Assembly: GCA_030682495.1 (NCBI GenBank)
Contig: JAUXOC010000091.1
Location: 2,879 to 66,878 of the forward strand
Source of the DNA: Alphaproteobacteria bacterium
GTDB lineage: Bacteria > Pseudomonadota > Alphaproteobacteria > Micavibrionales > UBA2020
Reading direction: 5' to 3'
Length of the DNA stretch: 64,000 nucleotides
The notes beneath the pieces were generated by a model, which was not told the DNA's origin, searched no databases, and saw only the letters and a program-made list of their open reading frames with translations. Positions 12,611-14,917 of the stretch are shown here, piece by piece (position 1 is the first letter of the stretch; each line of letters opens with the position of its first letter). A program made the translations under genes and the position numbers.

Positions 12611-12988
12611 ATGAGCCAGACCGTCATCAAATATAGCGTCGACAACGATTATACGCTGAGCGAGACCACCCTGCGTACGCCCGATGAAGCGAACAGCTTT
12701 TCCGGCCGCACCGTCATGACGCGGACATTCAATTTTCTGGCGCAGCAAGTGACGACCCATGTGCGTGACAGCGTGGTCGGCAACAGCGGCGGCTACAAAA
12801 ACGGCGGCGCGGGCGGCATCAGCACTGCCCTGACCCAGCAGCATTTCGAAGAATTTCGCAGCGATGCCGAAATTGTTTTTATGCACAAAAAACTGAAAGA
12901 GCTGAAGGGAAACCCGCCACCCCTCGAAGAGATCACACGCGGCCTCGGCAAAAAAGGCGCAGGACTATCGCCTGCAGTGAAAGGGTAA
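12611..12988 (+). CDS. Array paralog P1 (125 aa), unrecognised family
   Basis: Start moved to ATG 12611 (MSQTVIKY...) to match paralog lengths. The track's TTG at 12512 lies in the putative -35. Contains 'DNDYTL', 'TRTFNFLAQQVTT', 'EIVFMHKKLKELKGNPPPLEE'. Confidence 0.7.
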   Translation: MSQTVIKYSVDNDYTLSETTLRTPDEANSFSGRTVMTRTFNFLAQQVTTHVRDSVVGNSGGYKNGGAGGISTALTQQHFEEFRSDAEIVFMHKKLKELKGNPPPLEEITRGLGKKGAGLSPAVKG

Positions 12989-12992
12989 AGAG

Positions 12993-13370
12993 ATGAAAGA
13001 AACTTTCGCCAAGCTCAACGATTATACGCTGCTGCAAACACTGCGCGCCGCCGATGAAGAGACGAGTGCCTGGGGCGCCAGCTTCTACGTCAAATCGCAA
13101 CTGACGCGCAGTTTCAACTTTTTGTCTGCGCAAGTCACGACCATCAGCCGCGATATAACCTTTCAGTCCCGCGGGGCGGATGCTGGTGGGTCTTCGTCAG
13201 TATCGACACAGACGATCATTCAGAATTTTTCCGATATCCAGTCCGACGCGGAAATCCGGCTGATGCATGAAAAGCTGAAGGAGAAGAGCGGAAACCCGCC
13301 GCCGCTTGACGATATTCTGCGCGGTATGGGCAAGAAAAACACCGGCCTGACGCCCGCGGCGAAAGGATAA
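12993..13370 (+). CDS. Array paralog P2 (125 aa)
   Basis: 'KLNDYTL', 'TRSFNFLSAQVTT', 'EIRLMHEKLKEKSGNPPPLDD'. Starts 4 nt after the P1 stop, with aaagag upstream. Confidence 0.75.
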   Translation: MKETFAKLNDYTLLQTLRAADEETSAWGASFYVKSQLTRSFNFLSAQVTTISRDITFQSRGADAGGSSSVSTQTIIQNFSDIQSDAEIRLMHEKLKEKSGNPPPLDDILRGMGKKNTGLTPAAKG

Positions 13371-13373
13371 GCG

Positions 13374-13763
13374 ATGAGCAACAGATACAACAAGCTCAAC
13401 GATTACACGCTTGAGGTCGTACAAAGCCTGAGCGAGCGGAACCCGAGCCTTGGCTCGTATAACACACAGGCCGATTACAGCCTGACGCGCATTTTTAACT
13501 TTGGTACGGGGCAGCTGACCACACTGGCGCGGCATTTTTCCGGCATTTCCGGCAGGTATTCCTCTGACAACGGCGCAGGCGTTGCGTCATCGCTGCAAAT
13601 GCAGGTGCAGGATTTTCGCGACCTGCCGTCGCTGCACGAAGTGCGGCTGATGCACGCAGAGCTGGAGAGGCTGCACGGCAAGCCGCCGCCGCTGGAAGAC
13701 CTGATAGAGCCGCCCAAAACACAGGTCAACGGTAAATCATCGCTGCGGAAGCCCCAAGCATGA
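13374..13763 (+). CDS. Array paralog P3 (129 aa)
   Basis: 'KLNDYTL', 'TRIFNFGTGQLTT', 'EVRLMHAELERLHGKPPPLED'. Starts 3 nt after the P2 stop, with aaagga upstream. Confidence 0.75.
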   Translation: MSNRYNKLNDYTLEVVQSLSERNPSLGSYNTQADYSLTRIFNFGTGQLTTLARHFSGISGRYSSDNGAGVASSLQMQVQDFRDLPSLHEVRLMHAELERLHGKPPPLEDLIEPPKTQVNGKSSLRKPQA

Positions 13764-14146
13764 CCACCGAATATCACCGCATAGACGAGACAACGATTGC
13801 TGCGGTCAGCAGTCTTGGCTTCGACAAAGACAAGAAAGACTGGGGCGCACCGCGCCTGACACGTATCTTTAATTTTACGGCACGGCAGGTCGTGACACTG
13901 TATGAGCGCGGCGGCATCCAGAGCTATACGATCCCTCCCGGCAGCAACTACGGCAATAGCTCCACCGGCTACAGCGCCGCCGTCACATCGGCGATGCAAA
14001 TGCAGGATTTCAAAGACCTGCCGAACCCCGCCGAGATTGCCGAGATGCACGAAAGACTGGGCAAAATGGGCGGCAAGCCGCCGCCGCTGGAAGACGTTAT
14101 GCCCTCAACGGGGATCGACAAACCGCGCCCCGGCCTCAAGCGTTAA
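13760..14146 (+). CDS. Array paralog P4 (128 aa)
   Basis: 'RIDETTI', 'TRIFNFTARQVVT', 'EIAEMHERLGKMGGKPPPLED'. ATGA overlap with the P3 stop. Confidence 0.75.
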   Translation: MTTEYHRIDETTIAAVSSLGFDKDKKDWGAPRLTRIFNFTARQVVTLYERGGIQSYTIPPGSNYGNSSTGYSAAVTSAMQMQDFKDLPNPAEIAEMHERLGKMGGKPPPLEDVMPSTGIDKPRPGLKR

Positions 14147-14155
14147 GGAAGTATC

Positions 14156-14524
14156 ATGGAAGAGACGTTTCACAAGATTGGCGATTATATCCTGCGCGTT
14201 GATATTGAAAACAAGCACCCGACCGACAACGGTGTGCGCCGCGGCGACGGCATCAGCCGCATATTCAATTTTCGTGCGCGGCAGGTGACCACGACCGAGC
14301 GAAACTGGATTTACGAGGGACGCGGAGGCGATGCCGGCGGTAGTTCGGCGCTTTCCACCCATAGCCGCACCGAAAGTTTTGACGACCTGCCCGGCGACAG
14401 TGAAATTCCGCTGATGCATGCGAAGCTGCTGAGTCTGGAGGGCAAGCCGCCGCCGCTGGAAGACGTCATGCCCAAGATGCTGGGCAAACAAAGTGGCCTG
14501 CGCAGTCCTAAGCCGCAGGAATAA
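14156..14524 (+). CDS. Array paralog P5 (122 aa)
   Basis: 'KIGDYIL', 'SRIFNFRARQVTT', 'EIPLMHAKLLSLEGKPPPLED'. aaggaa RBS upstream. Confidence 0.75.
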   Translation: MEETFHKIGDYILRVDIENKHPTDNGVRRGDGISRIFNFRARQVTTTERNWIYEGRGGDAGGSSALSTHSRTESFDDLPGDSEIPLMHAKLLSLEGKPPPLEDVMPKMLGKQSGLRSPKPQE

Positions 14525-14569
14525 ACAGCAATAAGATTATTTTCATAGTGCACAAATCCGGAAAAAATC

Positions 14570-14917
14570 ATGTCCGATACACCCCCGCCGCGCGCGCCCG
14601 AAAACACCGAAGTTTTTGAAAAGCTGAACGATTATACGCTCAGCGTCGTCAACGATTTCGCACGGCAGGATCAAGCCGACCCCGAACTGCGCCGCATTTT
14701 CAATTTCGCCGCGCAGAGCGTTACGACAATCTACAGCATGTGGTACGGACATGCCGTCACGAGCAGTTTACATGTCGAAAAATTCAGCGACCTCGACAGT
14801 CTCGACGAAGTCGCACGCATGCACGAAAAACTCTGCGACATGGACGGGCATCCCCCGCCGCTGCCCGCAGCCGGCAAGCTCGGCAAATCCGCGCTGCGCA
14901 GCCCACAAAACCCCTAG
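14570..14917 (+). CDS. Array paralog P6 (115 aa), divergent member
   Basis: 'KLNDYTL', 'RRIFNFAAQSVTT', 'EVARMHEKLCDMDGHPPPL'. It has a Pro-rich N-terminal extension and lacks the Gly/Ser-rich middle. Its TAG stop lies inside the left arm of the inverted repeat. Confidence 0.7.
   Translation: MSDTPPPRAPENTEVFEKLNDYTLSVVNDFARQDQADPELRRIFNFAAQSVTTIYSMWYGHAVTSSLHVEKFSDLDSLDEVARMHEKLCDMDGHPPPLPAAGKLGKSALRSPQNP

Follow-up and report, generated by a model that had tools for sequence, protein, structure and literature searches.

Six tandem paralogs of a previously undescribed small-protein family ahead of the dcw cluster in Micavibrio-like Alphaproteobacteria

At the head of the dcw cluster, the slot directly before rsmH is usually that of mraZ, which encodes a small protein (UPF0040, PF02381) with an AbrB-type fold. 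Small domains with charged tails are known from another setting, the Bartonella BID domain, which is helical and forms a two-part C-terminal type IV secretion signal together with a positively charged tail. In Bdellovibrio, an ankyrin protein is said to shield the predator from its own endopeptidases. Micavibrio-like bacteria are obligate predators, and M. aeruginosavorus is equipped with secretion systems of types I and II and with none of type III or IV (PMC3189940).

We analysed a window of 64,000 nucleotides (64 kb; the whole stretch of DNA under study) in which six tandem same-strand ORFs lie between rnpB and rsmH, the first dcw gene here, with no mraZ between array and rsmH. The features are as follows, with dN/dS given against L001, the locus of the closest relative.

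12061-12445, forward strand: rnpB, RNase P RNA, class A (Rfam RF00010, 311.6 bits; located in relatives by nhmmer)
12611-12988, forward strand: P1, 125 aa, position-1 orthogroup (dN/dS 0.11)
12993-13370, forward strand: P2, family member of 125 aa (dN/dS 0.23)
13374-13763, forward strand: P3, family member of 129 aa (dN/dS 0.15)
13760-14146, forward strand: P4, 128 aa, its start overlapping the P3 stop in ATGA (dN/dS 0.20)
14156-14524, forward strand: P5, family member of 122 aa (dN/dS 0.15)
14570-14917, forward strand: P6, 115 aa (dN/dS 0.18), AlphaFold2 model at pLDDT 85
15180-16166, forward strand: rsmH (mraW)

The placement between rnpB and dcw, the ORF sizes and the intergenic spacers from P1 to P6 (4, 3, -4, 9 and 45 nt) all reproduced the figures of the initial annotation, as did the exact KLNDYTL in P2, P3 and P6 and the 29 of the last 42 residues that are identical between P1 and P2. 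The purine-rich, RBS-like stretches it had described for most copies were found ahead of P2-P5 and were weaker ahead of P1 and P6. Paralogy is far above chance, with BLASTP E values of 1e-12 to 1e-37 for all 15 pairs, and the six-way alignment has as invariants R-x-F-N-F, F, E, M-H, L and G-x-P-P-P-L. The proteins have a pI of 5.0-9.0, a domain charge of 0 to -9 and a tail of +2 to +3 in each case; no conserved cysteine and no N-terminal signal peptide were found in the family. The P6 type shows the strongest conservation (63% mean column identity) and closes nearly every array examined; it does not have the Gly/Ser-rich loop and combines an acidic domain (net -9) with a basic tail (+3). In agreement with the initial annotation, the array does not look like a recent island, with a GC content of 0.545-0.584 and a GC3 of 0.667-0.721 compared to 0.668-0.734 for flanking genes.

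The six ORFs are real genes of a previously undescribed small-protein family. Compared to L001, dN/dS was 0.11-0.23 for the array copies and 0.06-0.15 for flanking core genes, which points to purifying selection on all six genes, with the copies evolving two to four times faster than their neighbours. In a tree the copies largely cluster by array position, so the duplications are old and have been retained. A damaged copy was seen in one relative alone (L008), where the P6-type gene has two in-frame TAG codons.

AlphaFold2 gave a confident model of P6 (pLDDT 85, pTM 0.72) from a 122-sequence alignment; this depth was needed, with 22 close sequences alone yielding an all-helical model at pLDDT 45.8. 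The predicted fold is a five-stranded antiparallel beta-meander with one alpha-helix packed on top and a G-x-P-P-x-L cap, forming a folded domain of ~85 residues that is followed by a C-terminal tail of 15-25 residues, basic and flexible (core pattern: small residue, Leu, Arg/Lys, x, Pro). The layout of three conserved blocks and a basic tail described earlier stands as far as the motifs go, with the refinement that G-x-P-P-P-L (residues 91-100, modelled at pLDDT 93) sits in the folded domain and not in the disordered tail, the flexible part being the last ~15 residues alone. Among distant members only F44, F46, F72 and L88 are invariant; P95 comes close, whilst R42, E80 and H85 vary. No conserved set of catalytic residues was found across the family alignment, and the proteins appear to be small, soluble and non-enzymatic.

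No significant structural relative was found in PDB or BFVD. Sequence-profile searches of PDB reached E values of 0.07 and 4.6 at best, Foldseek against PDB gave a best E of 0.054 (TM of at most 0.37 among the 50 matches listed), and Foldseek against BFVD a best E of 0.011 (TM of at most 0.47). The first of the profile matches aligned a strand, the helix and G-x-P-P with strand 2, helix 1 and E-G-I-P-P of ubiquitin. It lay partly on an affinity tag and was gone with a more diverse profile, and the topology differs from a beta-grasp in having five sequential antiparallel strands and then the helix, so a ubiquitin-like fold was rejected. An RRM- or cold-shock-like RNA-binding surface at R-x-F-x-F was not supported, given that R42 varies in distant members and that OB, cold-shock and RRM folds were missing from the Foldseek matches listed.

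When 1.84 billion representative proteins were searched with a family profile, only 184 relatives came back, and those with a named source all came from Micavibrio-like alphaproteobacterial metagenome genomes, to which the family appears to be confined. No match named M. aeruginosavorus was among the listed results, so the family may not be universal in the genus, and none of the identified members came from a cultured species. The initial annotation could not assign the proteins to anything known, and this held in Pfam, NCBIfam, PHROGs and PADLOC, where the best matches (E 0.01-0.2) were inconsistent among paralogs and far below cut-offs, as it did in the PDB sequence and fold searches. Pfam returned no MraZ match for the array proteins at E values up to 10. 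A family description was not found in literature on Micavibrio mraZ, Micavibrio tandem paralogs or Micavibrionales. A phage or mobile origin was rejected, given that IMG/VR contained no relatives, that no PHROG match was significant and that the composition is like that of the flanks. One JGI protein name, 'negative regulator of replication initiation' (P0068), was the source of a SeqA-like idea; a SeqA-like or ribbon-helix-helix protein was rejected, having no Pfam support and requiring helices where the model has strands.

In ~28 distinct loci the array lies directly ahead of rsmH or, in the distant L025 and L026, of mraZ-rsmH, and the position at the head of dcw noted earlier is thus kept across relatives with one to seven copies per array (seven in L037). 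The upstream gene varies, being rnpB in the present clade and elsewhere a J-domain protein or gatB (L026), and several loci have other genes between rnpB and the array. Most loci have a pair of Amidase_2 genes shortly before the array; a PG_binding domain in the C-termini of the amidases, guessed by eye, had no Pfam support. With rnpB, Amidase_2, J protein or gatB, and rsmH as neighbours, the array adjoins no toxin, secretion or mobility gene, in agreement with the initial annotation. Synteny extends to sdh, PNP, the amidases and dcw, and since much of the surrounding region is syntenic too, the linkage to dcw may be partly passive. One subfamily (L029) and the fusions to ankyrin-repeat (Ank) proteins lie away from dcw.

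The array appears to be its own transcription unit with a conserved sigma-70-type promoter. The elements around it are as follows.

12495-12505, forward strand: AT-rich box AATATGTTAAT, conserved upstream of copy 1 in the alignment (whole feature 12495-12516)
12512-12540, forward strand: predicted array promoter, -35 TTGACA (12512-12517), 17-nt spacer, -10 TAGTCT (12535-12540)
14915-15063, no strand: MITE-like insert of 149 nt with perfect 20-bp inverted repeats TAGGATCAATCGACATTTAC and GTAAATGTCGATTGATCCTA
15082-15126, forward strand: predicted dcw promoter, -35 TTGACG (15082-15087), 17-nt spacer, -10 TACACT (15105-15110), and conserved GGGGTTGGAT (15117-15126)

In 15 of 18 loci copy 1 is preceded, at a distance of 64-115 nt, by TTGACA or TTGACG, with a -10 that fits TAnnnT. 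A consensus promoter scan missed the array promoter, its -10 matching at only three of six positions, and the assignment rests on conservation across aligned upstream regions. The scan did find the dcw promoter, whose -35 TTGACG is invariant in all 14 aligned loci. The MITE-like insert, situated between P6 and the dcw promoter, provides the stop codon of P6 and is absent from L001 in the alignment. The box and the -35 together form TTAA-N7-TTGAC (12501-12516), which resembles a CtrA box. TTAA-N7-TTRAC has a single occurrence in the window; because at least one is also present in 27 of 100 shuffles and the spacing varies between loci (N7 in 7 of 18, N6 or N8 in two more), we keep CtrA as a weak lead only.

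The family domain was also found at the C-terminus of larger proteins, the ankyrin-repeat proteins P0236, P0260, P0263 and P0265 and the tandem neighbour of P0263. An Ank protein encoded 4.4 kb upstream of the L001 array carries it too (hhalign probability 95.9%, E 6e-9), and in L029 four Ank genes flank a three-copy array. A K-P-A-L-R-x-P-like C-terminal tail ends not only family members: it occurs on unrelated lineage-specific neighbours, on Ank proteins and on an Amidase_2 neighbour. The tail motif, which was defined post hoc, was present in 13 of 37 lineage-specific compared to 6 of 80 housekeeping neighbours (p 3.6e-4), and in 32% of 311 family tails compared to 13% of shuffled tails. A net charge of at least +2 in the last 15 residues was seen in 93% of 70 members and 52% of neighbouring proteins.

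The best explanation, which we put forward tentatively and at less than even confidence, is that the paralogs are non-enzymatic docking subunits which assemble with one another and are tied to the programme of division and growth. The six genes would be expressed as one tightly coupled operon from the conserved promoter, upstream of the separate dcw promoter, and their products, made together, could co-assemble into a mixed complex. The domain may act as a docking or assembly module that brings Ank proteins with the same C-terminal domain to a shared complex or site, a common partner would recognise the basic tail, and the complex would serve cell division and growth. Coupled expression, as suggested by spacers of -4 to 45 nt and one conserved promoter before copy 1, is consistent with this, as are the purifying selection on all copies, the modelled fold with no conserved catalytic set, the place ahead of rsmH in ~28 loci and the Ank fusions, and a J-like protein with an HPD tripeptide encoded directly upstream in at least eight loci hints at a possible chaperone link. 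Against it stand the separate dcw promoter, the wider synteny of the region, the location of L029 and the Ank fusions away from dcw, the lack of a match named M. aeruginosavorus among the results listed, the damaged L008 copy and the variable copy number. As the dcw operon has its own promoter, co-regulation of the array with it can be inferred at most. With one to seven copies no fixed stoichiometry is to be expected, and the seven copies of L037 rule out a six-membered ring based on a ceiling of six.

Because the domain is fused to ankyrin-repeat proteins, a role as effector or immunity protein, from which the initial annotation leaned away, keeps some probability. The main rival to docking subunits, possible if on balance unlikely, is exported or translocated cargo, with domain and basic tail as a two-part C-terminal signal on small effectors and Ank effectors for Sec-independent delivery to the outside, to prey or to a eukaryotic host. 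Consistent with export, the proteins have no N-terminal signal peptide yet are linked to ankyrin proteins by fusion and neighbourhood, the domain is always at the C-terminus of fusions, similar tails end unrelated lineage-specific, Ank and Amidase_2 proteins, the motif is enriched in family tails, the copies evolve faster than their neighbours, and the lineage is named as predatory Micavibrio. However, the fixed chromosomal position and position-specific orthogroups over deep divergence are unlike typical effector loci, selection is purifying, none of the 10 Pfam-scanned window proteins belongs to a secretion system, M. aeruginosavorus has neither of the two systems named as absent above, and a J-domain protein of cytoplasmic type bears the same tail in some lineages.

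A broader and rather improbable proposal is that the basic tail, alone or with the domain, is a lineage-specific C-terminal address label read by one recognition machinery and sending proteins to prey or host by export, to the pole or septum, or to timed proteolysis. It would be shared by otherwise unrelated proteins of the Micavibrio lineage, among them the array family, ankyrin-repeat proteins, a second paralog family by sdhB, an Amidase_2 enzyme and the J-domain protein, and the array ahead of dcw would be the core cargo or adaptor set of the labelling system. If the tail is a sorting signal, it defines a new set of predator proteins and points to the machinery that reads it; if it is not, there is still a new domain family, confidently predicted in its fold, that can be deposited and tested.

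It is doubtful that a dedicated DnaK/J-protein chaperone system has the family proteins as its clients or partners, with the J protein recruiting Hsp70 to assemble, remodel or hold them. This idea stems from a J-domain-like protein of ~430 aa with an HPD tripeptide (invariant in the four aligned proteins), encoded between rnpB and the array in several clades (L004/L010, L012, L014, L019-L021, L027 and L038). In L012 and L014 a gap of 12 nt, which contains no promoter, separates the end of its gene from copy 1, and in some lineages the protein ends in K-G-P-A-L-R-P, resembling the family tail. Against the idea, the J-like protein was absent from the window and from the loci of the closest relatives and was not found under the locus tags of the source genome, and in M. 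aeruginosavorus the surroundings of its gene are unrelated and lack a family member. Its Pfam DnaJ matches (E 5e-5 to 0.04, 14-24 bits) fall below the 27.8-bit gathering cut-off; some relatives do carry a precomputed PF00226 match and one has the UniRef name 'J domain-containing protein'.

Immunity proteins or inhibitors acting against the cell's own wall hydrolases, such as the two upstream Amidase_2 paralogs, or against other toxins are more doubtful still. Tandem small cytoplasmic paralogs without signal peptides are what a polymorphic-toxin immunity array looks like, the amidase genes are close by in most loci, and the association with ankyrin proteins recalls the self-protection described for Bdellovibrio. 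However, no toxin domain or toxin, secretion or mobility gene adjoins the array, it persists in L026 with gatB upstream instead of the amidases, the P6 type is highly conserved and under purifying selection, and no PADLOC match was found. Position and one-to-one orthologs by position are kept across the ~28 loci, whereas immunity arrays usually vary between strains, and membership of that class was rejected.

Very little speaks for the array proteins as substitutes for MraZ that regulate transcription of the dcw operon. The array fills the vacant mraZ slot directly ahead of rsmH, mraZ is missing from the window and all close loci, and basic tails could contact DNA. The two are, however, not alternatives, since array and true mraZ lie side by side in L025 and L026, with mraZ between array and rsmH. 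The family searches gave no DNA-binding domain, the charge of the domains is neutral to acidic, and the predicted beta-meander with helix does not appear AbrB-like. The MraZ hallmark, a D-x-x-G-R-[hydrophobic]-x-[hydrophobic]-P repeat, had no occurrence in any of the six frames of the window or of loci L001-L021, while both repeats were found in the true MraZ of L025 and L026 as a positive control; there being no PF02381 or other sequence match either, a divergent MraZ was rejected. RnpA, the RNase P protein, which the adjacent rnpB had suggested, was also rejected: no Pfam Ribonuclease_P match was obtained, the pI and domain charges do not fit a strongly basic protein, and rnpB is separated from the array in several loci and replaced by gatB in L026. 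Non-functional, decaying or spurious reading frames, for which the damaged last copy of L008 could be cited, are effectively refuted by dN/dS of 0.11-0.23 in all six copies, the same architecture in 184 representative relatives, the confident fold and the conserved promoter.

The locus is a lineage-wide, selected, multi-copy gene set without known relatives at the division cluster's most conserved regulatory site, and together the array and the ankyrin fusions offer a concrete handle on the biology of the Micavibrio lineage. Compared to division accessory proteins of the SepF/ZapA type, the paralogs are similarly small and soluble, with a gene position tied to the division cluster, but they have no sequence or fold match to them, and none was among the 50 Foldseek PDB matches listed. 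The Bartonella BID system differs in that BID is helical whereas the family domain is predicted to be beta-rich, and no type IV secretion genes were seen here; the likeness lies in the build, a domain of ~100 aa with a short positive tail, present both on larger unrelated proteins and on small tandem stand-alone ones.

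The six successive plus-strand ORFs at 12611-14917, described in the initial annotation as tandem paralogs between rnpB and the division and cell-wall (dcw) gene cluster, were fully confirmed by an ORF listing of the window, which returned the same coordinates, lengths and spacers (4, 3, -4, 9 and 45 nt, in order) and placed them between the following features.

12061-12445, rnpB (RNase P RNA; Rfam)
12512-12517 and 12535-12540, array promoter, TTGACA, 17 nt, TAGTCT (intergenic alignment)
12611-12988, plus strand, P1, 125 aa (ORF listing)
12993-13370, plus strand, P2, 125 aa (ORF listing)
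13374-13763, plus strand, P3, 129 aa (ORF listing)
13760-14146, plus strand, P4, 128 aa (ORF listing)
14156-14524, plus strand, P5, 122 aa (ORF listing)
14570-14917, plus strand, P6, 115 aa (ORF listing)
14915-15063, MITE-like insert, 149 nt, perfect 20-bp terminal inverted repeats, TA ends
15082-15087 and 15105-15110, dcw promoter, TTGACG, 17 nt, TACACT (intergenic alignment)
15180, start of rsmH, the first dcw gene in the window

The claimed paralogy held for all 15 pairs in BLASTP (E 1e-12 to 1e-37), and the identity of 29 of 42 C-terminal residues between P1 and P2 was reproduced. A six-way alignment contained 18 columns invariant across P1-P6 (R-x-F-N-F, T, F, E, M-H, L, G-x-P-P-P-L, G, P). 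GC and GC3 of the array resembled those of the flanking genes, as had been noted by eye, and within the window the family profile matched only the six copies. An upstream TTG extension of P1 (from 12512) was rejected as spurious because its start falls on the -35 hexamer of the array promoter.

Alignment of the intergenic regions revealed two separate conserved promoters flanking the array, suggesting that it forms its own transcription unit. The array promoter is preceded by a conserved box, AATATGTTAAT; a CtrA-box-like TTAA-N7-TTGAC (12501-12516) was not significant alone and its spacing varies among loci. No convincing plus-strand terminator was found between the array and the dcw promoter, so read-through from the array into dcw is possible. 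The MITE-like insert separates P6 from the dcw promoter and supplies the P6 stop codon; it is missing in the closest relative (L001), and outside the insert the window has no further occurrence of its repeat arm. A palindromic element with the appearance of a REP- or MITE-type repeat, GTCATCCCCGCGAAAGCGGGGATC, is common to the rnpB-to-array spacers of two different genomes (L009 and L010).

Approximately 28 distinct loci with both the array and downstream sequence were examined in genome and metagenome collections. In all of them one to seven copies were followed directly by rsmH-ftsL-ftsI or, in L025 and L026, which are the most distant lineages (family identity to P6 about 25-30%), by mraZ-rsmH, and the position at the head of dcw first noted for the window was thus kept throughout the survey. 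The upstream neighbour varied (rnpB, a J-domain-like protein of about 430 aa, or gatB), leaving the dcw head as the constant neighbour of the array. The largest array seen, with seven copies, was in a metagenome locus (L037 3665-6267). L025 and L026 carry five family copies, then a true mraZ, then rsmH. A search of all frames for the MraZ hallmark motif, its pattern validated on these two loci, found none in the 64-kb window or in close loci, indicating that mraZ is missing from the slot ahead of rsmH in the window's clade (intervals compared: window 14917-15180, L025 10020-10478, L026 3612-4067). The array as a general replacement for mraZ was rejected, since L025 and L026 have both together. 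Upstream of rnpB, two tandem Amidase_2 (AmpD/AmiD-type) paralogs (10553-11302 and 11303-12013) without an obvious signal peptide are syntenic in nearly all relatives; their C-terminal extensions (about 90-100 aa) gave no Pfam domain match.

Selection was assessed against the closest relative, whose flanking proteins are 91-95% identical to those of the window. The dN/dS of P1-P6 was 0.11-0.23, not near 1, the value that the initial annotation had associated with decay, compared to 0.06-0.15 for rsmH, ftsI and both amidases, and protein identity of the six copies was lower than that of the flanks (71-90%). P1-P6 are therefore under purifying selection, although their rate of evolution is two to four times that of neighbouring genes. 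When 70 copies drawn from 17 loci were placed in a neighbour-joining tree, they clustered largely by array position, suggesting that the duplications are old and the copies have been kept as distinct types. The P6 type was the final copy in nearly all arrays examined and the most conserved (mean column identity 63%, 22 sequences). One P6-type gene (L008), otherwise well conserved with 74% identity to P6, contains two in-frame TAG codons (10058-10060 and 10175-10177), which means either that the gene recently became a pseudogene or that this co-assembled metagenome genome contains an error. P6-type proteins have an N-terminal extension with a proline run whose length varies among close genomes, with three prolines in the window and nine in the L001 ortholog of P6 (P0043, 11191-11562).

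The family could not be assigned in the initial annotation, and searches of Pfam, NCBIfam, PADLOC and PHROGs likewise returned nothing meaningful. Profile searches of PDB chains gave no significant match (best E 0.07 and 4.6, the former to a ubiquitin variant aligned partly over its tag), nor did Foldseek searches with the predicted model against PDB (best E 0.054, TM at most 0.37) and BFVD (best E 0.011, TM at most 0.47). The family and its predicted fold are new in the sense of having no detectable relative in the libraries searched, and no description of the family was found in the literature searched. Among 1.84 billion representative proteins, a profile search (E up to 0.001) recovered no more than 184 relatives, and word-indexed searches recovered 190 and 125; all were named 'hypothetical protein' except one with an evidently spurious JGI name. 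The family is known from uncultured genomes only. Records bearing it were titled Micavibrio sp., uncultured Micavibrio sp., Alphaproteobacteria bacterium or Bdellovibrionales bacterium, the last of which we take to be the former NCBI placement of Micavibrio. None of the matches listed was named as the cultured species M. aeruginosavorus, although only part of the collection carries names. Elsewhere in the window, three neighbouring paralogous M3 (oligopeptidase F-like) peptidase genes (50212-52152, 52149-54167 and 55318-57228, all minus strand) represent an expansion that would fit a predatory lifestyle.

The fold prediction proposed for the family was run on P6. AlphaFold2 with 122 family sequences gave a model (pLDDT 85, pTM 0.72) of five strands (13-20, 23-29, 37-45, 50-58, 63-71) and a helix (79-90), whereas a shallow input alignment gave a useless one (pLDDT 45.8). 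Residues 91-100 (G-H-P-P-P-L-P) reached pLDDT 93, placing this segment within the predicted folded domain, with flexible regions at 1-10 and 101-115 (block pLDDT 56-58). In P1-P5 a variable loop rich in Gly and Ser joins strands 4 and 5. Comparison with the most distant members leaves just four invariant residues (F44, F46, F72 and L88) and a nearly invariant P95; most of these members keep a recognisable, if not strictly conserved, G-G-x-P-P-x-L segment, and R42, E80 and H85 vary. This scarcity of invariant residues argues for a structural or binding module rather than an enzyme. The domain is neutral to acidic (P6 net -9) and the tails carry +2 to +3 each.

The family domain is also found at the C-terminal end of ankyrin-repeat proteins (P0236, P0260, P0263, P0265). 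Next to a Tad/Flp pilus cluster, the gene in tandem with P0263 encodes a protein that ends in the domain as well. A 319-aa ankyrin-repeat protein of L001, encoded 4.4 kb upstream of that genome's array, ends in the domain (hhalign probability 95.9%, E 6e-9); its counterpart is absent from the window's shorter interval between sdhB and the PNP gene. L029 (7521-8928 and 9134-11383) has a three-copy array at a distance from dcw whose members are a subfamily of the domain, extended at the C-terminus by one more helix (about 45 aa). This array is convergent with four small ankyrin-repeat genes, and two Peptidase_C93 genes lie near it.

We tentatively favour, as a possible reading, that the proteins are cytoplasmic adaptor subunits linked to the division and growth programme. 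P1-P6 would be expressed together and assemble with one another, because they combine a tightly coupled operon, old position-specific types and a beta-sheet domain without conserved catalytic residues; the ankyrin fusions suggest that the domain may act as a docking or assembly module. The process served would be division and cell-wall growth, because the array holds its place before the dcw promoter despite changing upstream neighbours, and this fixed position is the sole pointer to a process. About a quarter of our expectation lies with functions outside the readings considered here.

The main rival, itself rather unlikely, is that domain and tail are a C-terminal export signal carried by effectors. 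The family tails share a core of K ... small residue-L-[R/K]-x-P (e.g., GKSALRSPQNP, SGLRSPKPQE, KSSLRKPQA), and non-homologous lineage-specific proteins of the same neighbourhoods end very similarly. In the window, such tails occur on P3, P5, P6, the first Amidase_2 (Ami1, ending at 11302 in ...INKKFRPNT) and the 8787-9518 protein (...GGKPAVRRPR), relatives of which end in ...EKPALRPPARRP and ...EKPALRTPNGLGGHKP; ankyrin-repeat proteins of L001 (3912-4871) and L029 (9134-11383) have similar tails. A strict form of the motif was found in 13 of 37 lineage-specific compared to 6 of 80 housekeeping neighbours (Fisher p 3.6e-4), and in 32% of 311 family tails compared to 13 ± 2% after shuffling, a real enrichment of a motif that is loose and was defined post hoc. 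The tail might serve in sorting or recognition, or simply reflect the composition that disordered C-termini tend to have in this lineage. A basic tail common to unrelated proteins, the ankyrin link and the faster evolution of the copies favour export, but the array is fixed beside core genes, its orthologs are position-specific, the J-domain-like protein bears the same tail, and cultured Micavibrio lack type III and IV secretion (PMC3189940).

The 8787-9518 protein is a member of another paralog family specific to the lineage and not related to the first, encoded on the minus strand in the sdhB-PNP interval. The family is built from a module of about 145 aa and gave no Pfam match; genomes carry one to four members, all ending in a coiled-coil-like helix followed by a K-P-A-L-R-x-P-like tail. 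The window's 243-aa protein may be an internal duplication of the module, because some members with a single module can be aligned to it in two distinct places.

Paralogs between sdhB and the PNP gene:
window 8787-9518, minus strand
L001 4929-6132
L003 1669-3776
L004 518-2104
L005 3012-3764
L027 1852-2562

A chaperone-client system is improbable. The J-domain-like protein is conserved in the Micavibrio lineage (about 430 aa), with an invariant HPD in its N-terminus and Pfam DnaJ matches below threshold; some end in ...KGPALRP (L012 and L027 carry the tail). Its gene, placed after rnpB, is the immediate upstream neighbour of the array in at least eight loci of several clades, including one close to the window's clade (L038; FtsI 80% identical); in L012 and L014 a gap of 12 nt, lacking a promoter, separates its end from copy 1. 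Neither the window nor this genome's locus tags yielded it, and in M. aeruginosavorus it lies elsewhere, with no family member nearby.

J-domain-like genes:
L010 7159-8466
L012 7483-8889
L019 6543-7862
L027 5589-6869
L028 8001-9302
L038 3833-5050

We consider immunity or inhibitor proteins quite improbable, a transcription regulator of dcw still more so, and junk ORFs practically discounted. Compared to a routine hypothetical protein, this family stands out as lineage-wide, multi-copy, under selection, fixed at the dcw head and fused to ankyrin-repeat proteins.
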